Source: an uncultured virus (IMG/VR IMGVR_UViG_2667527737_000002)
Lineage: Duplodnaviria; Heunggongvirae; Uroviricota; Caudoviricetes
IMG/VR virus record: IMGVR_UViG_2667527737_000002
DNA length: 20,000 nucleotides
Direction: 5' to 3' (one strand)
In this document: positions 4,843 through 20,000 of the stretch, one piece after another
How the letters are laid out: every line of letters begins with the position of its first letter
Position numbering within the stretch: position 1 is the first letter of the stretch
Notes under the pieces: model-generated
Databases searched by the model: none
What the model saw: the letters and a program-made list of their open reading frames with translations, nothing else
Told to the model about the DNA's origin: nothing
Program-made: the position numbers and the translations under genes

Positions 4843-4864
4843 TACCGTTTTGGAGCAAAAAAAC

Positions 4865-7207
4865 ATGGCCGAACTTAACCCGCCACTGGGCACGACGACG
4901 CCGGAAATATTCATGGACAACGTTAAGCGCGCTGACGAGCTGGTTAACGGTCCGGCCGGAACGGTTGACGACCGCGGCGGTGAACCGCTCGATACCTGGC
5001 GCCAGATGATGGCGAAAAACGATGAGGTAAGGCAGAACCTGATCCCACTTAGTAAGCAGTATCAGACGCTGGCGGCAGCGCAGGCGGATATTGTGAATAT
5101 TCCGGTGGGGTCGACCACGTATTACCGTAGCCCGGATGACAGCGCTTTAGCTGTAGAAGTGATCAATAACGCCGGTACGCTGCAGCCTACCGGGCGGAAA
5201 ATGCCATCTTATTCTTCGCTACGCGGGGCGAACATTCTGTTTGATGCTCTGAATGAATATTCAGCAAATGATCCTAAATTCGGTGCGTGGGACTGGTATC
5301 GCGGAGCAGTGGTCACTTTCAGCACTACTGATGCTAATATTCCGTTACCGACTCCAGTGGCACAGTATTCCGGCGTATGGTCTGCAGATAAATATTATGA
5401 CCTTGCCCGCCTGCCTGTAAGGGTTGGTGATAAGTTAACCTTTTCCGTGCTGGCGTGGTTCCAGGATGCCGGTGCTAAGTTCCATATTTTCTGGATGTCC
5501 ACCGCTGGCGCTGTTATTTCGTCTAAATCACAGCTTGCTCTGGCCGCCGGTATAAATACGCCGGTTATCACAGATGTCATTCCATCCGGCGCATCCTACG
5601 TCAGGATCCGGGTTGAAAATACTACGGCAGGGATATTTAAGGTCGGTGCTTATGCTGCTGCGTTGGGGGCTATTCAGCCTGATTTTGTTCGCGCCACGCC
5701 GGATAAAACTTATCTGTCAGCCGTCATATCATCCGGTATTTCGGGGTTAACATCACGCGTCGATGCGCTGCAGGGGGCTATCTCTGTTGGTTATGCTTAT
5801 GCAGCTGCCTGGCAAGTCGGGAAATTTATCAACCCAACTACAGGGGCCATCACTGATAACTCTGCGCTGAACTGCGCAATCATTCCGCATTCCGACGGGG
5901 ATGGCTGGCTGGTGACAGCCCTTGTGACAGGATCGGCGACTGCTCTGGCCGTGTACATGAACAGCGCCGGGATGGTATTGGGTGTTGAAGGGCGGGGAAC
6001 GGCAACCCCGCAGCAGTATACAAATTATCGTCTGAACGTTCCTGCCGGGACAACACAGATCGGTATAACCGGTCGTAACTCTGCGGAAATTCCTGTTAAA
6101 AAACTTGCTGTCGTTGAGACGGCCACAGTTCTGGCATCGATCGATTCTCTGGATGTCAGGGTACAGACAATAGAGGACTCTCTTGTATATGATTTTATTA
6201 AACAGGACGTCACGATTACCTCAGGAGCATATATAAACCGTGCTGATGGCAGTGTGGTGGTAAATGCTGCATTTGACTGTGCAATTTTTAATTATACAGC
6301 AGGAGACCGCTGGAAAGTCACAGCGAGGGTTAACGGCAGTGGAGTTTCACTCGCGGTGTATATGAACAGTGCCGGGACGGTTATCGGCACCGAAGGGAAC
6401 GGTACTACAGAATCGGTGGACTACACCGATTACGAGCTAACACCTCCTTCCGGCACCGCCAAAATCGGGATTACCACCCGTATAGCTGTGCCCATTATTG
6501 CCAAAAAATATGTAGTCGTACCCGGCGGAGGAAGTTCGGTGAGTCCGTGGTCTGAAAAAATTATCGATGTGATGGGTGACAGCAACGTTGCCTATAACAA
6601 ATGGCAACCCCTTGTCGCGGAGGCGCTGGGGTGTTCATTCCTGAATCATGGTATCGGTGGTTCGAAAATAGCCAAACCGGATAGCTCATCAACGCAAATC
6701 AGCATGTGCGACGATGCTCGAATTAATGCCCTGGACACATCAGCAGCGGCGTGGATTTGTGGCCCGTGGGGGACAAATGACTGGGCGCAAAATATTCCGA
6801 TTGGAACTATCACCGACACAGTAAACACAACTGTTTATGGTGCGCTGAACATCATCGCTCAGAAGTTGCGTGCGCGGTTCCCAACAAAACCTATCCTGTG
6901 GGCCACGCCGTTCAATGGGGACTATGATTCTCCACGCTCAGCGGCATGGGTTGACGGTGAAACAAATGGTTATGGGCGGGTTTCTGACTATGCAGCGGCC
7001 ATACGCGCCGTGGCGTTGCGATATGGATTCCCCCTAATAGACCTTAACGCTGACTGTGGCTGGACAAAATTCAATAGCACCAGTTTTTTGTTAACCGAGG
7101 GGGATACAAATCCGTCCCGTATCCACCTCAATGCAGACGCGGGGCCTGTACGAATTTCTTCTCTGGTAACAGACCGACTTACTGCTCTTCAGAAACTGGT
7201 TGGCTAG
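4865..7207 (+). CDS. Tail spike/receptor-binding protein A with repeated putative carbohydrate-binding modules and C-terminal SGNH esterase domain
   Basis: ATG at 4865 after GGAG. N-terminal anchor 'MAELNPPLGTTTPEIF...DTWRQMMAKND' shared with 8034-9785. SGNH blocks 'VMGDSN', 'GIGG', 'GTND', 'IHLN'. Internal duplicated ~86 aa module. Confidence 0.85.
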   Translation: MAELNPPLGTTTPEIFMDNVKRADELVNGPAGTVDDRGGEPLDTWRQMMAKNDEVRQNLIPLSKQYQTLAAAQADIVNIPVGSTTYYRSPDDSALAVEVINNAGTLQPTGRKMPSYSSLRGANILFDALNEYSANDPKFGAWDWYRGAVVTFSTTDANIPLPTPVAQYSGVWSADKYYDLARLPVRVGDKLTFSVLAWFQDAGAKFHIFWMSTAGAVISSKSQLALAAGINTPVITDVIPSGASYVRIRVENTTAGIFKVGAYAAALGAIQPDFVRATPDKTYLSAVISSGISGLTSRVDALQGAISVGYAYAAAWQVGKFINPTTGAITDNSALNCAIIPHSDGDGWLVTALVTGSATALAVYMNSAGMVLGVEGRGTATPQQYTNYRLNVPAGTTQIGITGRNSAEIPVKKLAVVETATVLASIDSLDVRVQTIEDSLVYDFIKQDVTITSGAYINRADGSVVVNAAFDCAIFNYTAGDRWKVTARVNGSGVSLAVYMNSAGTVIGTEGNGTTESVDYTDYELTPPSGTAKIGITTRIAVPIIAKKYVVVPGGGSSVSPWSEKIIDVMGDSNVAYNKWQPLVAEALGCSFLNHGIGGSKIAKPDSSSTQISMCDDARINALDTSAAAWICGPWGTNDWAQNIPIGTITDTVNTTVYGALNIIAQKLRARFPTKPILWATPFNGDYDSPRSAAWVDGETNGYGRVSDYAAAIRAVALRYGFPLIDLNADCGWTKFNSTSFLLTEGDTNPSRIHLNADAGPVRISSLVTDRLTALQKLVG

Positions 7208-7241: not shown

Positions 7242-7274
7242 AACTCCCCCGGTGTGCCTCCGGGGGAGTTTTTT
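7242..7274 (+). terminator. Intrinsic terminator between the convergent spike cassettes
   Basis: Perfect 11-bp stem AACTCCCCCGG / CCGGGGGAGTT with 7-nt loop, followed by a T run on the + strand; only a short T run on the - strand. Confidence 0.8.
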
Positions 7275-8031
7275 AATCCATAGATAATAAGAACTGCGCA
7301 ACAGAAACCTTCTCTGCTGAAGTAAGCACGCCCTCCATCAACAAAACCGACTTGATATACTTGGTCGTTGTTTCGTTGTTGTTATCAGTTTTCCTCCCCA
7401 GCAGGACATTATTTGTTCCGGCCACTCGGGTCCCAGAGAAAGCAGCTGATGATGATATCAGTGCCCCGGTCTGCGGGTTGTAAATATCAACGGTTACCGT
7501 CCCCTGGGTTATCGAGGCAGCAAACGCGAACAGATCACCTACGGCGATAGAGGCCGGGAATGCCGCATAGGCATACCCGGCCGAGGACTGACCATTATTC
7601 TGGCCTACACAAAAGAGATTCCCGGTCCCGTTCGTGAAGCCAATTGAAAAGCCACTCGCTGCTGAACCGCTACCTGAAAAATCTGCGATCATATGGGCGT
7701 TCAGTGAAGCCCCTCCGGCATTCCGTTTAGCCACACCACAGATTGTCAGCGTCAAAGGTGCTTTCTGGTTTGTATCCAGATAATCAGTATTGTTAACAGA
7801 GATATAACCGTCAGCATTATTCAGAGAACCATTGATGACGGCCGGAGCGTTTTTGTTATAGGAGTTATAAGTGATATCAGGCGCTGGCTCTCCAAAATAA
7901 TAACCAGCGAACGGTGTTGCACTGACATCCGGGAGCCCGACGAACCAGTTTGAAATAGTAAAGTCATCAAGGGTTTTCATCCCCGGTATGACGGGACCGT
8001 TCATATCAAGTAAAATGGCTGTAATAGGCAT
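7273..8031 (-). CDS. Hypothetical beta-rich protein, possibly ConA/LamG-like partner of spike B
   Basis: 252 aa, starts 2 nt after the spike B stop with RBS CAGGAG inside its last codons. Alternating beta-strand pattern ('LTICGVAK', 'FAFAASI', 'VLLGR'). The fold is inference. Confidence 0.6.
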   Translation of the reverse strand: MPITAILLDMNGPVIPGMKTLDDFTISNWFVGLPDVSATPFAGYYFGEPAPDITYNSYNKNAPAVINGSLNNADGYISVNNTDYLDTNQKAPLTLTICGVAKRNAGGASLNAHMIADFSGSGSAASGFSIGFTNGTGNLFCVGQNNGQSSAGYAYAAFPASIAVGDLFAFAASITQGTVTVDIYNPQTGALISSSAAFSGTRVAGTNNVLLGRKTDNNNETTTKYIKSVLLMEGVLTSAEKVSVAQFLLSMD

Positions 8032-8033
8032 AA

Positions 8034-9785
8034 TTACTCCTGAAAAAATTCTTTTTTGATTTTATTTATCAATATATATGCGCCAAGAGAGCTCAGGTGC
8101 AAACCATCCTCCCAGGCCCCATTGCTGTTATCGTACGTTTTCGAGAATAGCTGATATCCACTAATGAAGTTGACGTTATACTCAACAGCCAGTTCACGCA
8201 TGACAGCATCGTACTCTGACAGAGCTGGAGTACCAGTTGCATTACAGTGACCCGGTGACACCAGGCAAATACAGATGCCGGGCGTAGCTTCCCGAAACTT
8301 TGTAATTATTTCCACCAGTCCATTTCTATATTGCGTTGTCCCCTTGCTTAACCTGAAATCGTTTGTACCAAGGATGACGAACAACAAATCAATATCGAGA
8401 TACTGTACAACAGGTTTGATCCACTCAGAAAAATTAAAGAAATCACTTCCTATAGCCCCGCCATTCCCCATCCTTGAAACCGTTACGCCGGAACGCACAG
8501 CGCTGTTCTTTCCATACATCCCCAAAATGGATACAACCCCACTTCCCAGGCTCTGAATCGTTACGCTATGGGCTGTTGCGGATAGCCCACTGATATCGTG
8601 CTTTTTAGCTGCTCCGGTGTTCGCACCATTGACTGTTACAGGTGTGCCGCCATCAATTGTGATGGTAAACGAACCGGAACCATCATAATAGAAAACTGAA
8701 AGAGCGGTTGCTGTAATACCGGTCCAGGCCAGAGACCCAACAGTATTGTTATTGTAATACCCATTCCCATCAGGTCCGCATCCATACGGTGGCGGGTTCG
8801 TGTTATTACTCCCTCCATCATATTTCGTAAAGTTTGTTGCAACGACAGGCGATATGCCAGCCATGACACCATCAGCGCGGTTAGAGCAACTTATCCAGGC
8901 CGGGTCTTTATATATCCCACCAAGAACATTAATTAATAATTGTGGAATCGTGTTTTTTTCGTTCCATGAGTCACCAAAAAAAGCGGTATTAACACTCGCT
9001 GCCTGCCCACTGAAAACACGACCTTTTTTAAAGTTGAACTTATACTGGTCTCCTTCAATAAATGAACTGTCTGATTTTGCAGAAGCCCCACCGACAAGAT
9101 TTAAGATATACTTTTCAATATTTGGCCCAAATCCATAACCGTCATACATACCGTTATGGAACCATGCATAAACATTTCCATTTCTGTCGTGAACAAACGG
9201 AAAGTAATTTGGAGAGTAGTCTCCCTGGGGGAGAAATTTTTGTGCCCAGGCGTTAGGTACTGACTCAATGATTGTTCGTGCATTAGCGCCAAAATCAGCA
9301 ACGTCCCAACGTCCACCATCAAACCACGCGTAAACATTTCTGTTTCTATCGAAAAAAACAGGAAACCATGTCGACAGGTATTGACCAGGGACGAGTCGCT
9401 GATTGAGCTTTTTGTCGATGGTTTCTTCTGAGGGCAACACATTCCCGGTGGGTACCAGTGTTCCGGCTTCGTTTAAATACTCAATTGCTACTGCGTCGTC
9501 AGTGCTGCGGACATAGCAAACTGAGTCCACCGGTATCTGACCGTTGTTCACGGCTGCCTGTGCTTCCGATAATGTCGAATAGGGTAATCCAAGCGCAGTA
9601 ATACTTTTGCGGGCGTCTTCAGTAACCTGATCATTTTTCGCCATCATTCCGCGCCAGGTATCCAGCTCAACGCCAGCGCGATCCGGCTCAGTCAGCTCGG
9701 ACCCATTGACCAGCTTATCCAGGCGCTCGGCATTATCGAGCAGCACAGCGGGAGACGTGCTCCCCAGCTCCGGGTTAAAGGCCAT
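8034..9785 (-). CDS. Tail spike/receptor-binding protein B with SGNH esterase domain (antisense to tail operon in this orientation)
   Basis: 583 aa. N-terminal anchor 'MAFNPELGSTSPAVLLDNAERLDKLVNG...DTWRGMMAKND' homologous to spike A. SGNH blocks 'FFGDSW', 'GNGG', 'LGTND', 'DGLH'. Confidence 0.85.
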   Translation of the reverse strand: MAFNPELGSTSPAVLLDNAERLDKLVNGSELTEPDRAGVELDTWRGMMAKNDQVTEDARKSITALGLPYSTLSEAQAAVNNGQIPVDSVCYVRSTDDAVAIEYLNEAGTLVPTGNVLPSEETIDKKLNQRLVPGQYLSTWFPVFFDRNRNVYAWFDGGRWDVADFGANARTIIESVPNAWAQKFLPQGDYSPNYFPFVHDRNGNVYAWFHNGMYDGYGFGPNIEKYILNLVGGASAKSDSSFIEGDQYKFNFKKGRVFSGQAASVNTAFFGDSWNEKNTIPQLLINVLGGIYKDPAWISCSNRADGVMAGISPVVATNFTKYDGGSNNTNPPPYGCGPDGNGYYNNNTVGSLAWTGITATALSVFYYDGSGSFTITIDGGTPVTVNGANTGAAKKHDISGLSATAHSVTIQSLGSGVVSILGMYGKNSAVRSGVTVSRMGNGGAIGSDFFNFSEWIKPVVQYLDIDLLFVILGTNDFRLSKGTTQYRNGLVEIITKFREATPGICICLVSPGHCNATGTPALSEYDAVMRELAVEYNVNFISGYQLFSKTYDNSNGAWEDGLHLSSLGAYILINKIKKEFFQE

Positions 9786-9877: not shown

Positions 9878-10426
9878 ATGCTGATTGGCTATGCACGGGT
9901 CTCTACAGGGGATCAAAACCTCGATTTACAGAAAAACGCGCTGATCCGCGCAGAATGTGAGCTGGTTTTTGAAGACACGGCCAGTGGGAAGAATGCCAGG
10001 CGGCCAGGGCTAAAACGCGCGATGCGACGACTCCGATCGGGGGACGTGCTGGTGGTGTGGAAGCTGGACAGGCTGGGCCGCAGCGTGCGCGATCTGATTA
10101 CGCTCGTGTCGGAGCTACAGGCGCGCGGGGTGAATTTCCGCAGCCTAACCGACAGCATCGATACCAGTACTCCAGCAGGCCGCTTTTTTTTCCACGTCAT
10201 GAGCGCCCTGGCGGAAATGGAGCGCGAGCTGATCGTCGAGCGTACCCGAGCGGGGTTAGCCGCAGCGAGAGAGCAGGGGAGAGTAGGCGGGCGCCGCCGG
10301 GTAATGACCACTGAGGTTGTGGAGCGGTGTCGCAGAATGCTGGAGAACGGCGCTACCCGGCAGCAGGTAGCAGATGTCATCGGGGTAGGAGTGAAGACTA
10401 TTTATAAATATTTTCCTGCCCAATAA
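9878..10426 (+). CDS. pin: Serine recombinase, DNA invertase of the Pin/Gin/Hin family
   Basis: 'MLIGYARVST' catalytic Ser motif, 'GDVLVVWKLDRLGRS', 'ERT.AGL.AAR..GR.GGR', C-terminal HTH ending 'TIYKYFPA'. Confidence 0.95.
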   Translation: MLIGYARVSTGDQNLDLQKNALIRAECELVFEDTASGKNARRPGLKRAMRRLRSGDVLVVWKLDRLGRSVRDLITLVSELQARGVNFRSLTDSIDTSTPAGRFFFHVMSALAEMERELIVERTRAGLAAAREQGRVGGRRRVMTTEVVERCRRMLENGATRQQVADVIGVGVKTIYKYFPAQ

Positions 10427-10543: not shown

Positions 10544-10584
10544 TATCTAAACTGGACATAACATGTTAATAAATAGGGGGTTTG

Positions 10585-11202
10585 ATGTCAGTCTCTAAAG
10601 ATTTCCTGCTTTCGGTATATGAGCGGTGCAATGAACATTTGAAAGAACAATCGACCAAGCGTGATCAGGCAATAGCTTTTTATTTGGTTGTTATATCGTT
10701 TTATTTCGGCTCATACTCAGCAATTAGCAAGTTATTGGTAAGTCCGTACTCCCCTATTTTTTTTAATGTGGTTATATGTCTGATTAGTGGTATGACAATC
10801 AGAACGTTGTCTGGTTTACGTTCATGGCATATGCAATATGCCAACTCGGCGTTAGCGCTTAATAAAGTGATATCGAAAAACATCTTTGAATTAGATGCTC
10901 TTAATTTAGAGATTAAGTCTTTCTTCGATAAGAAAGAAAAGGAATATCATGAAATGTCGCTTGCTAAAATGTTCTCTGGTATTGAAAATCGAGTCATTCT
11001 TGGGATGACTCTTATTTCCGGGTTTCCGGTTGTGATGTTAGTTAAAGAGGTTATGTCTTTACTCAAAGTAAGTAATAAAGAAATCATAGTGTTAGTTGAG
11101 TGCGCGTTTTACCTGGCATATGTTGTATATTATTTCTACAATACTATAATGATAATTCGCGAGTCAGCAAATCATAAAACTTGGATTGTAAATTTTGAAT
11201 AA
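10585..11202 (+). CDS. Hypothetical membrane protein, ~4 TM segments
   Basis: AT-rich ORF with AGGGGG RBS and ATG at 10585. Hydrophobic stretches 'AIAFYLVVISFYFG', 'IFFNVVICLISG', 'VILGMTLISGFPVVMLV', 'IIVLVECAFYLAYVVYYF'. Confidence 0.75.
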   Translation: MSVSKDFLLSVYERCNEHLKEQSTKRDQAIAFYLVVISFYFGSYSAISKLLVSPYSPIFFNVVICLISGMTIRTLSGLRSWHMQYANSALALNKVISKNIFELDALNLEIKSFFDKKEKEYHEMSLAKMFSGIENRVILGMTLISGFPVVMLVKEVMSLLKVSNKEIIVLVECAFYLAYVVYYFYNTIMIIRESANHKTWIVNFE

Positions 11203-11674
11203 GATTATTGTTGAAAATCAATACGTGACGGTGTTTTTTAATGACTCCGGGCACTTGCGCATAAGCCAAAAGCATGGAGGTGTTGTTGTTATTCCTGAGT
11301 GTAATGGAAAGTACGCATTAATTCAACATTCAAGAAATGGTGTTGTGCTTATTGAGTTTCCAAGAGGGTTTATTGAAAATGGTGAATCTCATATAGATGG
11401 TGCTGAACGCGAACTTAGAGAAGAATTGAATCTCGTTTCGGTCAATAGCTATTTATTAGGTGAATTGGTTACTGATTCAGGATTGATTACTGACAATGTT
11501 CGGGCTGTTATTTGTGAAGTGAAAGATACATCTCAGTTATTATTGCAATCAAGCGAGGGTGTTATAGGTTGTGATTATTATACTTATGATGAAGTTATTG
11601 AACTTGTAAAGAATGGGAAGGTTAAAGATAATTTCACCTTGGCCTCATTAATGCTATTACAGGCTAACAGGTAA
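11195..11674 (+). CDS. Nudix hydrolase (ADP-ribose pyrophosphatase-like)
   Basis: Nudix box G-x5-E-x7-RELxEE ('GFIENGESHIDGAERELREELNL'); 'EFPRG', 'TDSG' and 'GKVKDNFT' resemble NudF/NudE-type enzymes. TTG start overlaps the upstream gene by 8 nt. Confidence 0.85.
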   Translation: MNKIIVENQYVTVFFNDSGHLRISQKHGGVVVIPECNGKYALIQHSRNGVVLIEFPRGFIENGESHIDGAERELREELNLVSVNSYLLGELVTDSGLITDNVRAVICEVKDTSQLLLQSSEGVIGCDYYTYDEVIELVKNGKVKDNFTLASLMLLQANR

Positions 11675-11902: not shown

Positions 11903-11944
11903 TTGATATGTCGCCCTGTTAAAACTACTGTATATAAAAACAGT
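11903..11944 (+). promoter_or_regulatory. umuDC SOS promoter with LexA box
   Basis: TTGATA (11903-11908)-N17-TACTGT (11926-11931). LexA box CTGT-ATATAAAA-ACAG at 11928-11943 matches the CTGT-N8-ACAG consensus. Confidence 0.9.
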
Positions 11945-13854
11945 GTGCGCCGGGAGACCGGTTAGAGATCAAGGGGTGAAAGTCCCCGACCATTGAAGGA
12001 CCAGCAATCCACAAGGTCCCCGAGTCATGCGTTGCATACCGCGAGGTATGGGGCGAAGCGTTGACAGGGGTGTTGACAGGCCAGCCATTGAGCCACGAAA
12101 TGTATATTAAATTACCGGGTGCCGACGTTGTACTGTTAACGGAAGGCAACATCATAGGGTGCGATACTGCGAGTGCCACATGGACCCGGCGGGGTCTGAG
12201 ACCCTGGCATGTCAATACGATCTCTACGCGGGAACCGGGAGATCTCCCCTCTGACCATCTGCCAGTGTCGGAGATGGCCCGCACCGGGAAGACGAGGAGT
12301 CATAGCCGGTGATGTACGGAGAGGAGAAGTCGGACTCGCTCATAGTAGCGGCGAAGCAGGCGAACAACCCGAAAGGAGCGGAGTCAGTGGAGCGAAGGAG
12401 CGGGGCCAAGGGGAACGCGGAACAGCCACACATGCGCCGGACACAGAGCCGGGAAAGCATGTCACAGAGGCTGTCACGCGTGCGGGAAGCTGCGAAGCAG
12501 CGGAAGAAAGAACGGTTTACAGCATTGTTCCACCTGCTGACAGTCGAAGCACTGGAAGCCGCATTCCTCTCCCTGAGCAGGAAAGCGGCCGCCGGAGTGG
12601 ATGGCATCAGGTGGATGGACTACGCCGGAAACATGAAGAACAACATAACAGATCTGCACCGGAGGCTACATCAGGGCAGCTACAGGGCGCAGCCCGGCAG
12701 GCGTCACTACATCCCAAAAGCGGATGGAAAACAACGCCCGCTCGGCATCGCCTCGCTGGAGGACAAGATCGTCCAGTATGCGCTGGTGAAAATCCTGAAC
12801 GCAGTCTATGAAAACGACTTTATGGGGTTCTCATACGGGTTCAGACCCGGGCGAAGCCAGCACGATGCACTGGACGCACTGGCCACAGGGCTGGTACGCA
12901 CTAACGTAAACTGGGTACTGGATGCCGACATCAGTCAGTTCTTCGACAGGGTGAGCCACGAATGGCTGATCAGGTTCACAGAGCATCGGATCGGCGACCG
13001 GAGGGTAATCAGGCTCATACGTAAGTGGCTCACAGCCGGGACGTCGGAGGAGGGTCAATGGCGAGCAACGGAGGAAGGCACCCCACAGGGTGCGGTCATC
13101 TCACCGCTGCTGGCAAACATATACCTCCACTACGTCTTCGATCTGTGGGCGCATCAGTGGCGACGTCGCTATGCCACAGGCAATGTGGTAATGGTCAGAT
13201 ACGCCGATGACATCGTCATCGGGTTCGACAAACGATACGATGCCCGGCGCTTCCGTATAGCCATGCAGCGCAGACTGAGGGAGTTCGGACTCACGGTTCA
13301 CCCGGAGAAAACCCGTCTGATGGAGTTCGGCCGCTTCGCTGCCGAAAACCGTGCCATCAGGGGAAAAGGCAAACCAGAAACGTTCAACTTCCTCGGGTTC
13401 ACGCACATCAGCGGGAAAGATCGCAACGGCAGGTTCATGCTGATACGAAAGACCCGCCGGGATCGGATGACGGCAACTCTGAAAGCCATCAAAGACGGTC
13501 TGCGAAGGCGCTGGCATTACTCAATCCCCGAACAGGGAAAATGGCTCAGGAGAGTGGTTCAGGGATACCTGAACTATCACTCGGTACCGGGCAACTTCCC
13601 CACCATGCAGAAGTTCAGGACACACGTAACAAACCTCTGGCGCCGGGCGCTCAGGCGCAGGAGCCAGAAGGATGATACGACCTGGACGAAAGCAAACAAA
13701 CTGGCAGCCGCATGGCTACCAAGGGTTCGGGTTCTTCATCCATGGCCTGTGGAGCGGTTCACCGCCAGACACCCGAGGCAGGAGCCCGGTGCGTAAATCG
13801 CGCACGCCGGGATCTGTGCGGGGGGTATCCGGTAACGGGTATCCCTACCGCGAC
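11945..13854 (+). mobile_element. Group II intron, full length (1910 nt)
   Basis: 5' end GTGCG at 11945; domain V 'GAGCCCGGTGCGTAAATCGCGCACGCCGGGATC' (~13782-13814, AGC triad, AC bulge); domain VI hairpin ending ...CCCTACCGCGAC at 13854. Removal restores TACTGTATATAAAAACAGT|ATTAAT upstream of umuD. Confidence 0.95.
12309..13796 (+). CDS. ltrA: Group II intron reverse transcriptase/maturase without endonuclease domain
   Basis: RT motifs '[14 protein letters not shown]', 'SYGFRPGRS', '[14 protein letters not shown]', 'RYADD', 'FNFLGF'; maturase X domain 'GYLNYH'; no HNH domain. Stop codon lies within domain V. Exact start uncertain. Confidence 0.95.
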
Positions 13855-13875
13855 ATTAATGTGAGCGAGACTATT

Positions 13876-14295
13876 ATGCAGTTCTACACGCCCGTTGAGT
13901 TACGTCAGATCATGCTGCTCCCGTTGTACAGCGACCTTGTGCAATGTGGTTTTCCAAGTCCTGCGCAGGATTACGTTGAGCAACGTATCGATCTGAACGA
14001 GTTGCTCGTTAACCACCCCAGTGCGACGTATTTTGTCAAAGCCGCCGGCGACAGCATGAAAGACGCCGGCATAGGGGAGGGTGATCTTCTGGTAGTGGAT
14101 AGCTCAAGGACAGCAGTTCATGGTGATATCGTTATTGCTGCTGTGGATGGGGAATTCACCGTTAAGAAGCTGCAGCTGCATCCGCGGGTTCAGCTTAACC
14201 CAATGAACCCTGCATATTCGCCAATAGTCGTCGGTAGTGAGGACACTCTCGACGTGTTCGGAGTGGTTACGTATATCATAAAATCAGCTGGCTAA
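13876..14295 (+). CDS. umuD: DNA polymerase V subunit UmuD
   Basis: 139 aa from the ATG at 13876; '[14 protein letters not shown]' cleavage site, 'GDSM' Ser and 'FTVKKL' Lys of the S24 peptidase dyad. Confidence 0.95.
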
Positions 14296-14296
14296 G

Positions 14297-15562
14297 ATGT
14301 TTGCGCTTTGTGATGTGAATTCATTTTACGCATCGTGCGAGACCGTATTTCGTCCTGACCTGAAAGGGCGTCCGGTGGTTGTTCTGTCAAACAACGACGG
14401 CTGTGTGATCGCCCGCTCGCCGGAGGCGAAGCCTTTCGTCAAAATGGGTGAGCCTTATTTCAAGCAAAAGGACATGTTTCGCCGGCACGGTATTATCGCG
14501 TTTAGCAGCAACTATGAGCTTTATGCCGATATGTCCAACCGAGTGATGACAACGCTGGAGGAACTGTCTCCACGCTGCGAAATTTACAGTATTGATGAGG
14601 CATTTTGCGATCTGACAGGTGTTCGTAATTGTCGCGACCTTACCGACTTTGGCCGGGAAATTCGCGAGACGGTTCTGCGCAGGACGCACCTCACGGTCGG
14701 TGTCGGCATAGCCCAGACTAAAACCCTGGCAAAGCTGGCCAATCACGCGGCGAAACAGTGGCAGCGGCAGACCGGAGGAGTGGTGGATCTATCTAATCAG
14801 GAACGGCAAAGGAAGTTGATGGCTTTGCTTCCGGTGGATGAAGTCTGGGGGGTCGGGCGCCGCATCAGTAAAAAACTGGAGGCAATGGGCATTAAAACAG
14901 TGCTTCAACTGGCGGATACCGATATCCGTTTTATCCGGAAGCATTTTAATGTGGTTCTGGAGCGAACAGTGCGGGAGCTGCGCGGCGAGCCATGCCTCGG
15001 GCTTGAGGAGTTCGCACCGTTAAAGCAGGAAATCGTTTGCAGCCGTTCGTTCGGCGGTCGTATCACGGAATACCATGAGATGAGGCAGGCAATATGCAGC
15101 TATGCGTCGCGCGCAGCGGAGAAACTCCGTGGCGAGCATCAGTATTGTCGGTTCATCTCAGCGTTCGTTAAAACCAGTCCCTTTACGCTTAACGAGCCAT
15201 ACTACGGAAACAGCGCATCATTAAAGCTGCTAACGCCAACCCAGGACAGCAGGGACATAATCACCGCGGCGACGAAATGCCTCGATGTAATCTGGCGAGA
15301 CGGACATCGCTATCAGAAAGCAGGTGTGATGCTGGGGGATTTCTACAGTCAGGGCGTGGCACAGCTCAACCTGTTTGACGATAACGCACCGCGGAAAAAT
15401 AGCGGAAAACTGATGGAGGTCCTGGATCATCTGAATGCCAAAAATGGGAGAGGGGCGCTGTACTTTGCCGGCCAAGGAATCCAGACCGCCTGGCAGATGA
15501 AACGAGAAATGCTATCCCCGCGCTATACTACGAGGTTCTGTGATCTGCTCAAAGTTAGATGA
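14297..15562 (+). CDS. umuC: DNA polymerase V catalytic subunit UmuC
   Basis: 'MFALCDVNSFYASCE', 'VLSNNDGC', 'YSIDEAF', 'QLNLF' clamp motif, 'W.MKREMLSPRYTT'. Confidence 0.97.
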   Translation: MFALCDVNSFYASCETVFRPDLKGRPVVVLSNNDGCVIARSPEAKPFVKMGEPYFKQKDMFRRHGIIAFSSNYELYADMSNRVMTTLEELSPRCEIYSIDEAFCDLTGVRNCRDLTDFGREIRETVLRRTHLTVGVGIAQTKTLAKLANHAAKQWQRQTGGVVDLSNQERQRKLMALLPVDEVWGVGRRISKKLEAMGIKTVLQLADTDIRFIRKHFNVVLERTVRELRGEPCLGLEEFAPLKQEIVCSRSFGGRITEYHEMRQAICSYASRAAEKLRGEHQYCRFISAFVKTSPFTLNEPYYGNSASLKLLTPTQDSRDIITAATKCLDVIWRDGHRYQKAGVMLGDFYSQGVAQLNLFDDNAPRKNSGKLMEVLDHLNAKNGRGALYFAGQGIQTAWQMKREMLSPRYTTRFCDLLKVR

Positions 15563-15717: not shown

Positions 15718-15978
15718 ATGTTTACCCCAGAGTTTATAAATGAAGAACGCGGCGAATTTCTCCTTGTGGCCAACCACGCTCTGGCATCACCGGAATCGAT
15801 AAAACTCAGTATTGCATACAATTTTGCCAGAATATGCTGGGGGCTATCGCAGCTTCCACCGCACATTCAAACTTGCCGGGTCGTCTATGACATCAGAGGG
15901 CAATCCATCCCTGATCAGGTTCAGGCCCAGATCAGGCAAGCACTTGAGCAGATAGCCATGGTGGAGTTTAAGAGCTGA
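15718..15978 (+). CDS. Small hypothetical protein, possibly degenerate restriction-endonuclease-fold
   Basis: 86 aa with AAGGGA RBS; 'LP....RVVYDIRGQ' recalls the C-terminal motif of some REase-fold polymorphic toxin domains; TGATG overlap with next gene. Confidence 0.6.
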   Translation: MFTPEFINEERGEFLLVANHALASPESIKLSIAYNFARICWGLSQLPPHIQTCRVVYDIRGQSIPDQVQAQIRQALEQIAMVEFKS

Positions 15979-16214
15979 TGGGACTTCAGTTAATTATCAA
16001 AGCAGAACGTAACAAGATAGAAAAAGCATTGGGATCGCTGACACCAGAGTGTGAAATATTCCCGGTCGCTGAAGGCCTTTTCGGTATTTCCATTCCGGAA
16101 CGAAGTCTCTCATCCGCGGGTGAATCTGCAGTTCTAAAAAAACTTGAACCACTCACACGTTTTGACCTATGGCAGGGAGCCTGGCAAGAACCCAGGCGAC
16201 GTTGGTTTTGGTGA
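15978..16214 (+). CDS. Small hypothetical protein
   Basis: 78 aa, translationally coupled (TGATG) with GGAG upstream; Trp-rich C-terminus 'DLWQGAWQEPRRRWFW'. Confidence 0.6.
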   Translation: MGLQLIIKAERNKIEKALGSLTPECEIFPVAEGLFGISIPERSLSSAGESAVLKKLEPLTRFDLWQGAWQEPRRRWFW

Positions 16215-16315
16215 GTTTCAGCGCTGAGTGAGATGGGGAAGTCGCATTGCGTGCTGGGCGCAGATCGCCTGTCTTCATTAGCAAAGCGGCTTAAGGCTCT
16301 CAGTACTCAGATATG

Positions 16316-16345
16316 AATGTCCGCTGCTGGCACAGGGCTGCTGTT
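16316..16345 (+). repeat. Palindromic site S2
   Basis: AATGTCCGCTG-CTGGCACA-GGGCTGCTGTT; left arm and spacer match S4, right arm degenerate; 15 bp from the recombinase stop codon. Confidence 0.65.
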
Positions 16346-16360
16346 GCAGCCCTGACAACC

Positions 16361-16963
16361 TTAGACTTCAATCGATTCAGAGATCTCTAACGCATCATCG
16401 ACTTCGATGCCCAGATAACGGACTGTGCTTTCCAGTTTCTTATGGACCAACAGAAGTTGGATCACCAGGAGATTCTTGGTTTTCTTGTATATCAGGTAAG
16501 GTTTTGTTCTTCTCATGGAATGTGTACTGTAAAGCGAAGCTTCGAGACCAAGCTTTTCTACCCACCCATGAAAAATTCGGCTGTATTGTCGGGTTGATAT
16601 GTGCCGGTTAGTTCCGATCCGAGACCGAAACAAGAAGTCTTTACTGTGCAAATTGCCAAGCTTTATCAACGCAGCAACAACTTCTCTTGTCCCTTTGGTT
16701 ATCTCGAATTGCACAGGGCTACCGGTTTTCTGTTGCAGCATCGTTGCTCTGCTTGAAACCGAACTACCATATGCAACATCAGATACTTTGAGGTTCATCA
16801 GATCACAGCCTCGTAGCTTACTGTCTAAGGCCATATTGAACAGAGCTAAATCACGCGTTTTACCTTCCAGTTCAAGCCGGATTCGGATCCCCCAGATATG
16901 AGATATCTGAAGTAGTTTTTTTTGGCCTATGATACGGTCTTTATTCCACGGTGACGTGTTCAT
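16361..16963 (-). CDS. Short tyrosine recombinase (catalytic domain only)
   Basis: 200 aa from the ATG at 16963 after GGAG. Catalytic set R ('KLRGCDL'), K ('QQKTG'), HxxR ('HSMRRT'), H ('LLVH'), Y ('TVRYLG'). Too short for an N-terminal core- or arm-binding domain. Confidence 0.9.
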   Translation of the reverse strand: MNTSPWNKDRIIGQKKLLQISHIWGIRIRLELEGKTRDLALFNMALDSKLRGCDLMNLKVSDVAYGSSVSSRATMLQQKTGSPVQFEITKGTREVVAALIKLGNLHSKDFLFRSRIGTNRHISTRQYSRIFHGWVEKLGLEASLYSTHSMRRTKPYLIYKKTKNLLVIQLLLVHKKLESTVRYLGIEVDDALEISESIEV

Positions 16964-16999
16964 ACTCAAATCTCCTGCAATATGGGAGATTTGAGTATG
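16961..16999 (-). promoter_or_regulatory. Perfect 15-bp hairpin covering the RBS and start codon of the recombinase
   Basis: CATACTCAAATCTCC (16961-16975) / GGAGATTTGAGTATG (16985-16999), 9-nt loop. Confidence 0.75.
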
Positions 17000-17029
17000 G
17001 TTGTCCCTTATGAGCGAAGAGCAGAAGTT
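17000..17029 (-). repeat. Palindromic site S3
   Basis: Minus strand AACTTCTGCTC-TTCGCTCA-TAAGGGACAAC; spacer resembles S1; directly abuts the leader hairpin. Confidence 0.65.
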
Positions 17030-17111
17030 CGAAGCGTCTCTAACCTAGATTGAATTCATTTTTTTTACAAATTTTATCAAAATCAATCTCTAAATATCAT
17101 CACACATGTTT

Positions 17112-17984
17112 TCATCCGTAATATTCATGTTTTGATCTGTGCTTATTTTCAATAATTTCTATTATCGCTGATTCTTTCCAAACAATTGCTAGGTCGGGAT
17201 AAATATTACTTCCGGAATGTATTAATTGAGAACGTCCTGAATAGACTCCTCCAAAGGTATAGCATTGTGACATAATCATATCGTCAATGTTTTCCTTTCC
17301 TTTCGGCAAAGTAAATCCATTTGATTTTATAAATACAGCAGAGCCTGACATGCCAGTTTTAGTTGTAGCTGTATCAATAAAATACTTAGGTAGATTGTCA
17401 ATGTTTACATCATGTTCAGAGGCTACACTACCTCTTTTCCATATTGGTAGATTCCCCCCGGCAACCATACCTAGAGGATAACCGATAAGGAATGCATCCA
17501 TACCAGCTTTAATATCAAAATCTTCCAAATTCAGCTCATTTGAATTAACAGGTAAGATAGCAAATCCATTTTCTTTTAAGGTTTTCATGGTGTCGTTAAC
17601 AGGTATTGCAATTATATCGACCTTGTTCTCATGGTTTGGGTGTTCAAACCATATAGGTGCATATTCACCATTGTCCTCCTCGTATAAATTAAGTTTAAGA
17701 ACATTTCTCCATGATAAATAAAAAGAGTTACCTACAGCCTCTATTCTTTTAGGAAGATAAAGAGTCATGAGGTTAGGAACTGATAAATTGATGGTATCTA
17801 ATGGCTTTCCGGTTAAGGAGTTTCTTCCTGTAACGTTATGCCAGTTTGTTATTAAATAGATCTTCTCATTAAAACAATAAAAAAATGCAGTGGCTGTACT
17901 CAGAATTGTTAACTCATCGCTGTCAGCATTCCCTCTACACATTTCTATCTTAAATGATGTTAAACTTAAATTGTTAATTGACAT
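17112..17984 (-). CDS. Trypsin-like serine protease
   Basis: AT-rich 290 aa ORF, AAGGGG RBS. Triad motifs 'YLITNWHNV' (His), 'VDIIAI' (Asp), 'GMSGSAV' (Ser), plus 'IGYP'. No signal peptide evident. Confidence 0.85.
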   Translation of the reverse strand: MSINNLSLTSFKIEMCRGNADSDELTILSTATAFFYCFNEKIYLITNWHNVTGRNSLTGKPLDTINLSVPNLMTLYLPKRIEAVGNSFYLSWRNVLKLNLYEEDNGEYAPIWFEHPNHENKVDIIAIPVNDTMKTLKENGFAILPVNSNELNLEDFDIKAGMDAFLIGYPLGMVAGGNLPIWKRGSVASEHDVNIDNLPKYFIDTATTKTGMSGSAVFIKSNGFTLPKGKENIDDMIMSQCYTFGGVYSGRSQLIHSGSNIYPDLAIVWKESAIIEIIENKHRSKHEYYG

Positions 17985-18118
17985 TATAACCCCTTATTTT
18001 AACTTCTTGGTGCCGGCGGATAAAACAGCAATATAAACACTACGTGAAAGTAAATTGCGAATGATTATAGGCCAAACCAATGATAATGTCACTTGACATT
18101 AAAGATTGCAGCGTAAAG

Positions 18119-18148
18119 AACGTCTGCTCTTGGCACATTGCAGACATT
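18119..18148 (+). repeat. Palindromic site S4
   Basis: AACGTCTGCTC-TTGGCACA-TTGCAGACATT; overlaps the SRAP stop codon. Confidence 0.7.
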
Positions 18149-18833
18149 ACGTATTTATTGGGGGCTCGATCGCCTCAATTAATTCTGGCCCCTGATTTTT
18201 AACATTACCCACGGCGCGCGTCACGGCGTGCCAGATAAACTTGTCGGCGGGCACTGCTCCGTCGGTGGCTATCTCTTCGGCTTCCTTCCCGCCTATATCC
18301 AGGCGCATCCATTCGCGTGCGGCTTCCGGCACCAGGACGAGTGATCGGCGGTCGTGAATATCGACCAGCCCTTGGTCAGCAGCTGCAGTCACTATCAAAA
18401 ATCCTTCAGCTTCGTCGCCGCGTTGAAAAGGTACACTCCCGATCGCCGCCATGAAGATGGGCTTGCCGTCTTTACGGTGGATGAAATAGGGCTGCTTCTT
18501 GTCACCTTCACGCTTCCACTCAAACCAGCCGTCTGCAAAACAAATTGCTCTCCCGTGCTGCCACAGGGATTTAAACATCCTGCTGCTGGCAGCAGTCTCA
18601 ACCCGGGCATTAGTCGATGGGGGTTTATCCCACCACCCAGGCGCATAACCCCAGTGGATCGGATCGAGGTGCAACTGTTCGTCGCGTTCGCTCAGGAGCA
18701 AAACTTTAGTCCCCGGTGCCACGTTGTACCGGCCGATTGGTTCGGGGTCATAAGCGATATCCCGCTCGGCCTCTTCAGCCAAATAAGCCTGGTACTCTTC
18801 ACGGGTTTGTGATTGAGCAAAGCGTCCACACAT
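18147..18833 (-). CDS. yedK: SOS response-associated peptidase (SRAP/HMCES family, YedK-like abasic-site protein)
   Basis: N-terminal 'MCGRF', 'RYNVAPG', 'NARVET', 'DGWFEW', 'IHDR'; GGAGGT RBS; convergent with umuC. Confidence 0.93.
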   Translation of the reverse strand: MCGRFAQSQTREEYQAYLAEEAERDIAYDPEPIGRYNVAPGTKVLLLSERDEQLHLDPIHWGYAPGWWDKPPSTNARVETAASSRMFKSLWQHGRAICFADGWFEWKREGDKKQPYFIHRKDGKPIFMAAIGSVPFQRGDEAEGFLIVTAAADQGLVDIHDRRSLVLVPEAAREWMRLDIGGKEAEEIATDGAVPADKFIWHAVTRAVGNVKNQGPELIEAIEPPINT

Positions 18834-18943
18834 GGTTACCTCCAGTCTTCAGAATGAAAGTATAGAAGGAGAGACTCTGGACGATGGGGTTGTATTAGGA
18901 ATAGCGACATTCGTCATCAATCGCACTTGGCCTACTGATGGCG

Positions 18944-18973
18944 AATGTCCGATATGATAAAATAGCGAACATT
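18944..18973 (-). repeat. Palindromic site S5 (more diverged spacer)
   Basis: Minus strand AATGTTCGCTA-TTTTATCA-TATCGGACATT; same 11-8-11 layout and arm consensus; ~50 bp past the AbiH-like stop. Confidence 0.5.
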
Positions 18974-19022
18974 ACCCCTTTTACTAACATGCCTATTTAG
19001 CCGAGCACTACTTTCGTTGTAG

Positions 19023-20000
19023 TCACGACCTTACCAGCAGGCTACATACTGGCACAATTAGGGGATATTCAATGCCTATGCTCTGCAATGCATGTAGGTG
19101 TTGATCACGTTCTTTTTCAAGATACCATGTCGCTGTCCAGGTCGAATTAGGCTGGACGTGTTGTTTAATGGCAGCGAAGTAAGGCATGTCGACCGCTGAT
19201 AAAGAGTGTCCAATTATGATCACCTCGTTTACCGCGTTGAGTTGAGAGAAAAATGATTGGTTTGCATCTATCACTTCCTCTGTATTTTTGAATGAGTGGG
19301 TAAAGTACCGATTCAGAGTCTGTTTTCCTATTTCATATGCAAAATCGTAATTATCAGACATGTGTTGATACCACTGTTCTAGCTCCTCATCCGTTGCGTC
19401 CGTGGGCGGCTCTTGAGGAGGCTCTTTGAAATTTTCAGGATCAATCCCATGCCCCAGTATAAGCCTATCCCCAGGTAAGGATGCATTGCCGTGGATGTAA
19501 AGAATCTGGTTTCTTTTTATTCCGTAATAGCATTCAATAGTTCTGGTGTAATTAAAGTTTATAAATAGGGCATTGTTGCATAGTTGCAGTGTTTTATCGA
19601 CGGTAAACTCTGGGTATTTAACTTGAGAAATAAACGACATAAACTGGGTGAAAATACCATCAGTTAAATTTTCAAGAATTCGCTGCATTTCAATTTCAAA
19701 AGCATGCCAGTCTCTATCACGAAAATCTGGGTCACCCAGATTTGGGAGATAATCGGTAAATGCATCCAGTACAGCCTGAGAATCTAACCCTGCCAGATTA
19801 CTTTCAAATTCACACCACAGACGATGTTCATCCTCATTCAGTTCGTCAATATTTTCAGGGAGTTCTGTGAAACCGACAAACTCAATTAAGTTGTTGTACG
19901 AATCCCTCTGGTGAGATCGCAAAAAATAGGCAAAAGAACAATAGCTGGTATCAAGACCATGGTGTAAATCAAATCCGTTTCCAGTTATGTAAAGTTTCAT
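19023..20000 (-). CDS. abiH: AbiH-family abortive infection protein (SIR2-like fold)
   Basis: 'LYITGNGFDLHHGLDTSY', 'INFNYT', 'YIHG', 'LILGHG', 'IIGHSLSAVDMPYF' motifs. The ATG sits at the very edge of the window, so the start is unconfirmed. Confidence 0.85.
   Translation of the reverse strand: MKLYITGNGFDLHHGLDTSYCSFAYFLRSHQRDSYNNLIEFVGFTELPENIDELNEDEHRLWCEFESNLAGLDSQAVLDAFTDYLPNLGDPDFRDRDWHAFEIEMQRILENLTDGIFTQFMSFISQVKYPEFTVDKTLQLCNNALFINFNYTRTIECYYGIKRNQILYIHGNASLPGDRLILGHGIDPENFKEPPQEPPTDATDEELEQWYQHMSDNYDFAYEIGKQTLNRYFTHSFKNTEEVIDANQSFFSQLNAVNEVIIIGHSLSAVDMPYFAAIKQHVQPNSTWTATWYLEKERDQHLHALQSIGIEYPLIVPVCSLLVRS

Follow-up and report, generated by a model that had tools for sequence, protein, structure and literature searches.

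We analysed a 20,000-nucleotide stretch of DNA (the window; G000:C1:44940-64939), which lies at the right end of a provirus record of 64.9 kb, and found in it a full-length group II intron of the S.ma.I1/Kl.pn.I5 lineage inserted at the 3' edge of the LexA (SOS) box in front of umuDC. The tabulated flanks of other copies confirmed, at the level of sequence, that the retrohoming site of this lineage is the LexA operator. The intron seems to use a switch of host stress control as its landing address, since nearly all other copies, and distant relatives as well, sit in LexA boxes. To the whole explanation, an intact copy of a lineage that homes to the LexA operator by the pairing mechanism proposed below, we assign a probability of about 0.8.

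The intron and its prophage locus

The genes of the window run from tail genes through a serine invertase and a low-GC two-gene cargo to the intron, umuDC and more cargo. The LexA box that forms the 5' exon of the intron (11926..11944, + strand) supplies 19 bp of the 20-bp box, with its core CTG-N10-CAG at 11928-11943. It overlaps the predicted -10 hexamer TACTGT (11926-11931), and the predicted -35 hexamer of the umuDC promoter, TTGATA (11903..11908, + strand), lies 17 nt 5' of the latter; this promoter was absent from the list of a consensus promoter scan of the window. With CTG-N10-CAG, an AT-rich spacer and a position in the promoter of an SOS gene, the site has the make-up of an E. coli type LexA operator, and from this consensus match we infer that LexA binds there. 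The 3' exon (13855..13875, + strand) comprises an A, which is IBS3 and the final base of the 20-bp box, and the leader of umuD. It is followed by open reading frames for umuD (13876..14295, + strand; 139 aa; Peptidase_S24, E 1e-29) and umuC (14297..15562, + strand; 421 aa; IMS, IMS_C and DUF4113), both of them open.

The intron boundaries were read from natural alleles. A 41-nt stretch of the promoter was present on 21 IMG/VR contigs, 19 of which are empty and run into the umuD leader, while 2 carry the intron; two of the 19 empty contigs have exactly the 3' exon of the window. Both intron ends are fixed by these empty alleles, and the insertion, at the 3' edge of the LexA box, is polymorphic and did not duplicate its target. 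The box, the intron start and the motifs ACTGTT (12132-12137) and TGTATA (12101-12106) all lie where the first-pass annotation had placed them. Its claims that the 3' exon begins with the A completing the 20-bp box (A at 13855, in agreement with the empty alleles) and that insertion leaves the 16-bp LexA core intact were equally borne out.

The intron itself (11945..13854, + strand; 1910 nt, starting with GTGCG and ending with CGAC) has a GC content of 58% compared with 36% upstream and is the only copy in G000. It is 100% identical to a copy on plasmid pCuAs of K. pneumoniae BAA-2146, named S.ma.I1 in the searched text of Hudson et al. 2014 (PMC4048246), and ~100% identical over 1910 nt to R478 172056-173964 and pK245 12052-13960, the pK245 copy being the Kl.pn.I5 reference in the searched text of Leclercq and Cordaux 2012 (PMC3522654). 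The link to both database names was made through the strains and plasmids named in these texts. The comparison with known introns that had been proposed earlier thus ended at an already catalogued mobile intron.

Its termini (GTGCG at 11945, AC at 13854) and its precise insertion are those of mobile group II introns (5' GUGYG, 3' AY). Rfam RF02005 matched positions 11979-12204 (domain I-IV fold) with 186.6 bits, and a fold of 13770-13854 (z -3.56) gave domain V (13782..13815, + strand; AGC triad, AC bulge, 5-nt loop) and domain VI (13818..13854, + strand) with an unpaired A at 13847 and the 3' end AC. The encoded RT/maturase (12309..13796, + strand; 495 aa, YADD) scored 376 bits with TIGR04416 (cut-off 300); RVT_1 was its only Pfam match, and an endonuclease domain is lacking. 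The intron presumably belongs to ORF class E. The ribozyme shows the group IIE/IIF traits given in the searched text of PMC3753933, namely alpha' in the Id3 terminal loop, an extra Id3 bulge and a 5-nt domain V loop. The alpha-alpha' interaction comprises three pairs here and four in several relatives. The intron falls outside group IIC, as EBS2 is present with compensatory changes, and a scan of the window found no terminator-like site 5' of it on the + strand.

The element is abundant among gut bacteria: a search of 72,556 plasmid records gave S.ma.I1/Kl.pn.I5 on 4,313, of which 3,778 are from Klebsiella (3,552 at 99% identity or more, 675 at 90-95%), and it was also found in 219 of 5,426 E. 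coli genomes, with 45 chromosomal places, and in 5 phage records. Counted by place, it occurs at 4,980 plasmid and 275 E. coli positions. Head-to-tail tandem copies in IMG/VR (L108-L111 with four starts, L152-L153 with two) may be assembly artefacts or products of recombination. Copies with an altered 5' terminus (BLAST matches from query base 6), lying antisense to umuD on IncR plasmids and a Citrobacter contig (L009, L314, L315), are probably inactive and widespread. Several assemblies labelled as actinobacteria or Bacteroidota carry the intron on contigs with enterobacterial flanks (L001, L002, L006-L008, L018, L019, L043). GTDB matches under such labels (Streptomyces, Actinomadura, Pedobacter and others), 100% identical and on short contigs, were treated as contaminating enterobacterial DNA, which is the likely reading.

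Other features of the prophage were recorded alongside. A second LexA-like box (G000:C1:18695-18710) carries no intron; its base at -10 is A, and it does not match the pairing pattern. The low-GC gene pair 5' of the promoter (10582-11674, + strand) encodes a protein of 206 aa, which matches 8xMP weakly (E 5e-5, below cut-off), and an overlapping Nudix hydrolase; it is possibly defence cargo. In the tail and invertase region (ORFs at 4850-7207 (+), 7273-8031 (-), 8034-9785 (-) and 9878-10426 (+)), two proteins of tail type, related in their N-termini and both with SGNH/GDSL esterase domains, lie in opposite orientation next to the serine invertase, a possible invertible receptor-binding cassette. 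Downstream of umuC (15718-20000) we found an 86-aa ORF without assignment, a tyrosine-integrase-like ORF, a trypsin-like protease, an SRAP gene and an AbiH gene.

Insertion sites of other copies

Loci collected from GTDB, IMG/VR and metagenomes yielded 228 intron 5' ends among the matches listed; removal of 10 tandem junctions and 6 flanks shorter than 25 nt left 212, which collapsed to 132 distinct 30-nt flanks, 27 pattern matches (chance matches or divergent relatives) having been left out before this count. Among the matches listed, CTG-N10-CAG ending at -2 was present in 120 of the 132 distinct 5' flanks and in 56 of 67 flank clusters, and perfect boxes made up 9/10 flanks from GTDB, 70/71 from IMG/VR and 57/67 from metagenomes. 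The same 120 of 132 end in CTG-N10-CAGY, 131 end in CAGY and 118 in ACAGT, and 126 have a box with at most one mismatch; two of the 12 flanks without a perfect box are boxes cut by an IS end. A match of this frequency at one exact offset is not due to chance, although the flanks are not independent, mobile elements are over-represented among them, and a small contig may be a chimera joined at the intron repeat. Among 41 distinct 3' exons the first base was A in 38 and G in 3, and conservation ended at +2. The reference copies of R478 and pK245 likewise sit after CTG-N10-CAG boxes.

The tabulation of flanks that the first-pass annotation had asked for thus placed most insertions at SOS boxes, and its proposal that the intron targets the LexA operator, whether carried by a prophage, a plasmid or a chromosome, was upheld by the same 120 of 132 flanks. 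It had named umu/muc-type promoters as the homes of the intron; such sites were found, but the range is wider. Genes beside insertions include umuD (also the chromosomal umuD of E. coli) and mucA homologues, sbmC, dinI-like, cloacin-like (bacteriocin) and short UmuD-like genes, integrases and unassigned phage genes. No recA, lexA or uvr site was recognised among 140 sites, 74 of which have no assigned neighbour.

Some individual sites merit mention. One copy on a plasmid with four copies (L349) occupies a non-LexA site overlapping the end of gltS. At L236 and L243 an IS end, presumably of ISL3 type, lies inside the same LexA box 14 nt 5' of the intron, a second element landing in AT-rich boxes; the 3' exon of L236 is the chromosomal E. 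coli umuD leader. The 79-aa phage gene phrog_3893 was repeatedly found behind an intron-occupied LexA box, in both orientations (L083, L132, L130, L188, L231 and others), and is likely to be an SOS-controlled prophage gene; phrog_2100 and phrog_698 are likewise located behind occupied boxes.

Pairing of the intron RNA with the operator

When domain I was folded, as the earlier annotation had suggested, EBS1 fell in the Id3 loop, and the Id3 hairpin with the loop ACTGTT was the same in the RF02005 alignment and in the fold. EBS1 (ACUGU; 12132..12136, + strand) faces IBS1 (ACAGT at -5 to -1; 11940..11944, + strand) and changes together with the exon end among relatives: of 15 relative loci scored, 14 have complementary runs of 5-8 nt. 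Since position -6 varies (A in 57 and T in 73 of 132 flanks), the working EBS1/IBS1 interaction comprises five pairs (-5 to -1). The ACTGTT-AACAGT pairing first proposed was thus correctly located, but its sixth pair is not conserved. The Rfam structure also shows delta' in the coordination loop (A 12091, + strand) paired with delta U12131, both invariant in 13 aligned introns. EBS3 (U 12197, + strand) pairs with the first base of the 3' exon and covaries with it in relatives, being U before A exons, A before T and G before C. The intron therefore displays, in EBS1 and EBS3, the covarying EBS/IBS pairing of mobile introns.

EBS2 (UGUAUAU; 12101..12107, + strand) was located by the Rfam structure and the aligned introns in the Id bulge after GAAA. 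Several registers are possible because of the AT repeat in the target. The best-supported one sets IBS2 at 11932..11938 (+ strand; -13 to -7), with six of seven pairs in the window copy, and gave the best Watson-Crick score (0.78) compared with 0.70 for the -9 register of the first-pass annotation (TGTATA with TATATA, -14 to -9), which can form in the window copy but is less well supported; with wobble pairs counted, the registers at -10 and -11 scored 0.92 and those at -7 and -9 alike 0.89. The -9 register would set a G opposite position -10, which is T in 129 and C in none of 132 flanks; position -8 is T in 64, C in 20, A in 48 and G in none. In asymmetric boxes the strand used was the better one in 29 cases, the worse in 16 and tied in 7 for the -7 register (p 0.036), compared with 23, 22 and 7 for the -9 register. 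Compensatory pairs in the -7 register were seen in Burkholderia/Ralstonia L344-L345 and Caballeronia L347, and full pairing in L025 and L055, both partly read by eye; pairing at -7 was absent from L030, L038 and L062, and Cupriavidus L346 slightly favours -9 (5/7 versus 4/7 pairs, by eye). Together these comparisons make -7 to -13 the most likely register.

Relatives and age of the target preference

In an RT tree of 27 rows the window intron falls in a clade of 11 rows (98/95 support) with introns of beta-proteobacteria and MAGs that share 69-74% protein identity. Twelve distinct beta-proteobacterial or MAG sites of the clade were read: 10 are perfect boxes, one has a single mismatch and one is retargeted. 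Ralstonia L344, Cupriavidus L346 and the copy of Burkholderia anthina, which has imuA on one side and an SRAP gene on the other, are inserted at the same base of the LexA box. A lineage from Ralstonia, Pelomonas and MAGs has the EBS1 UACUG(U) and cuts one base later; seven of its eight distinct sites are perfect boxes and the eighth has one mismatch. On the simplest reading of these sites, LexA targeting would be old in the clade. Two members, Caballeronia L347 and Acidobacteriaceae L025, have moved to other targets, and their EBS sequences have changed to match; neither L347 nor L348 is an intron of LexA sites, and nine lineages outside the clade (L029, the L030 group, L038, L039, L053, L055, L120, L320 and L348) occupy other sites. 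We also considered whether alpha-proteobacterial and actinobacterial relatives sit on LexA motifs of their own hosts, and rejected this, their flanks being without such a box by eye. The Id3 motif of the beta lineage gave no match in the viral search.

Orientation and expression

The window copy is sense to umuDC. A simple ORF rule, applied to the 64 sites for which both flanks were available, gave 30 sense, 19 antisense, 5 both and 10 neither, and seven box sequences are occupied in both orientations. Of 11 plasmid records picked from 40 listed, eight have the intron antisense to umuD/mucA; the R478 copy is antisense as well, and the pK245 copy shares its 5' flank with the antisense copy L312. 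By eye, antisense copies part the upstream promoter DNA from the operator and the gene. Entry into the non-template strand of an open promoter, which we had considered, was dropped in view of the antisense copies. The first-pass annotation had placed the RT under SOS control. As insertions take both orientations, this can hold for sense copies but is limited to them, and most of the 11 plasmid records are antisense.

Five of the eight copies in File S1 of Hudson 2014 (PMC4048246) lie 7 bp after a predicted start site. The RNA 5' exon of the window copy would then hold little more than IBS1, with EBS2 left for DNA homing. SOS-induced expression of the intron together with a restored umuDC mRNA is plausible for this copy, because EBS1 alone suffices for splicing of IIE/IIF introns in vitro according to the searched text of PMC3753933. 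Neither a spliced joint nor SOS induction was seen in 4 of 24 listed RNA runs, which look DNA-rich (contigs up to 42 kb). The sole joint across the intron (run X1) belongs to a related empty allele with 19 other letters and is not a spliced product, and an RNA run searched as raw reads had no reads on the intron.

Recognition of the left half-site and proposed mechanism

The claim that the exon-binding sites read the box stands for the right half-site and the spacer, a pairing that already favours LexA boxes strongly, but not for the left CTG, which is outside any EBS pairing. TACTG (-19 to -15) lies beyond EBS2 and is conserved at 105-128 of 132 flanks, as strongly as the paired positions. 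We compared insertion flanks with genomic matches in those 21 of 41 searched enterobacterial genomes that are at least 4 Mb long. With the loose pairing pattern the left CTG was present in 96/104 insertion flanks (92%) versus 122/556 genomic sites (22%), and with the full pattern in 23/28 (82%) versus 34/74 (46%; p 0.0015, the sites not being independent). Since the left CTG is enriched beyond the RNA pairing, a further reader of this half-site is likely. The intron-encoded protein is known to read distal exon bases in other mobile introns and would most simply be this reader, the other candidates being survival bias or LexA. The left CTG is not essential, as the 12 flanks without a perfect box demonstrate, and survival of insertions could add to its enrichment.

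We consider it unlikely, if worth keeping in view, that RNA pairing alone picks the site and that the CTG excess arises from LexA boxes being the commonest AT-rich intergenic matches on mobile DNA, with loss of insertions elsewhere. The 46% of full-pattern genomic matches that carry CTG is far above 1 in 64, and insertions lacking CTG are known (the gltS end L349; L205, L219, L247, L259); this reading is opposed by the frequency of CTG at insertions, 82-92% compared with a background of 22-46%, and by the strength of conservation at -19 to -15. Guidance by LexA protein or by the state of the SOS promoter, either through recruitment by bound LexA or through single-stranded DNA that becomes exposed once LexA has left and RNA polymerase has opened the promoter, appears less probable still. 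It would account for the keeping of both half-sites and the exact 10-bp spacing and for a preference that has outlasted ~30% divergence of the RT, with the cut moved by 1 nt. It would also suit an RT without endonuclease, since introns of the RmInt1 type that lack this domain depend on exposed DNA or a replication fork. Yet the use of both strands (the 30 sense and 19 antisense sites, with seven boxes occupied both ways) disfavours a strand-specific transcription bubble, bound LexA would hide the bases needed for pairing, and we found no precedent.

A general preference for promoter or ribosome-binding-site contexts (Hudson 2014), with the likeness to LexA boxes incidental, is very improbable: many sense sites do lie 16-30 nt 5' of a start codon in a purine-rich leader, but LexA boxes, and not promoters in general, make up 91% of sites, and antisense sites lack a downstream ribosome-binding site. 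The end of 3' exon conservation at +2 also speaks against this reading, which the flanks and orientations largely refute, and on this ground a ribosome-binding-site preference was dropped.

In the mechanism that we favour, the intron RNP would pair with one operator strand, EBS1 with ACAGT (-5 to -1), EBS2 with the AT-rich spacer (-13 to -7) and EBS3 with the next purine, and reverse splicing would take place directly after CAGT. The intron-encoded protein would most likely recognise the left half-site TACTG (-19 to -15), which the RNA leaves unpaired, or help to melt it, and the endonuclease-less RT would carry out reverse transcription, probably from a primer of the replication fork. Because the operator is a palindrome, either strand could be the target. 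Sense copies would lie ~7 nt 3' of the predicted start of the SOS transcript, keep the -35, the -10 and the 16-bp core, be transcribed upon LexA cleavage and splice out via IBS1 alone, restoring umuDC mRNA. Antisense copies would not splice from the SOS mRNA and would place 1.9 kb between upstream promoter DNA and operator. The intron would gain dozens of intergenic sites on prophages and plasmids and an expression timed to phage induction and DNA transfer.

A further-reaching picture can be put forward tentatively, at slightly less than even odds: a clade of retroelements specialised on the operator of a transcription factor, of which the RNA reads one half-site and the spacer and the protein (or LexA) the other, the sense copy being SOS-induced and spreading with prophages and plasmids, and antisense copies altering polymerase control on plasmids.

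Relation to known mobile introns

The element is on record among the PMC papers that we searched by term for LexA, with its copy numbers, its promoter preference and fresh insertions in an outbreak in the text searched; multiple copies, location on mobile elements, intergenic sites and the preference for promoters are given for S.ma.I1/Kl.pn.I5 in the searched text of PMC4048246 and PMC3522654. Neither LexA nor SOS is named in the searched text of these two papers or in File S1 of Hudson, and the searched text of PMC3522654, PMC4048246, PMC4147364, PMC8269217, PMC12584367, PMC3636086, PMC7306698, PMC12189595 and PMC4471558 makes no link to LexA. No statement of LexA targeting was found in the openly available text searched. 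The LexA-operator targeting rule of this known intron is apparently unpublished.

Group II introns are known to home to conserved genes, to insertion sequences, to terminators and to attC hairpins. To these, the operator of a global regulon would add another type of address, offering one intron many safe intergenic sites and tying the expression of sense copies to DNA damage. On plasmids and in E. coli genomes the element usually lies in the region that controls a homologue of polymerase V, which makes its influence on the genes of SOS mutagenesis of interest; if our reading is true, antisense copies, frequent on plasmids of Klebsiella, would alter how an error-prone polymerase is controlled on thousands of plasmids. 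For an intron class that has received little study, the system also offers a natural multi-site model in which target bases read by RNA can be told apart from those read by protein, and the insertion sites flag LexA-controlled phage genes without assigned function.

Like the window intron, RmInt1 of Sinorhizobium meliloti (IIB) has an RT/maturase without endonuclease, EBS1/2/3 and delta-delta', and its distal exon bases are read by protein; RmInt1, however, homes into the gene of an insertion sequence, whereas the window intron enters a host regulatory site at many unrelated loci. Group IIC introns, which target terminators and attC sites, are alike in colonising a class of recurring non-coding signals and not one gene, but they lack EBS2 and recognise a hairpin (searched text of PMC3522654 and PMC3753933), while the window intron has EBS1/2/3 and pairs with the primary sequence of the operator. 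The EcKTE56.groEL intron (searched text of PMC12584367) is likewise an enterobacterial group II intron tied to a stress-response locus; it is located at the stop codon of one conserved gene, in contrast to the window intron at the operator of a regulon. In comparison with S.ma.I1/Kl.pn.I5 as published, the present analysis brings the operator target drawn from 132 flanks, the use of both orientations, a corrected EBS2 register and the beta-proteobacterial relatives.
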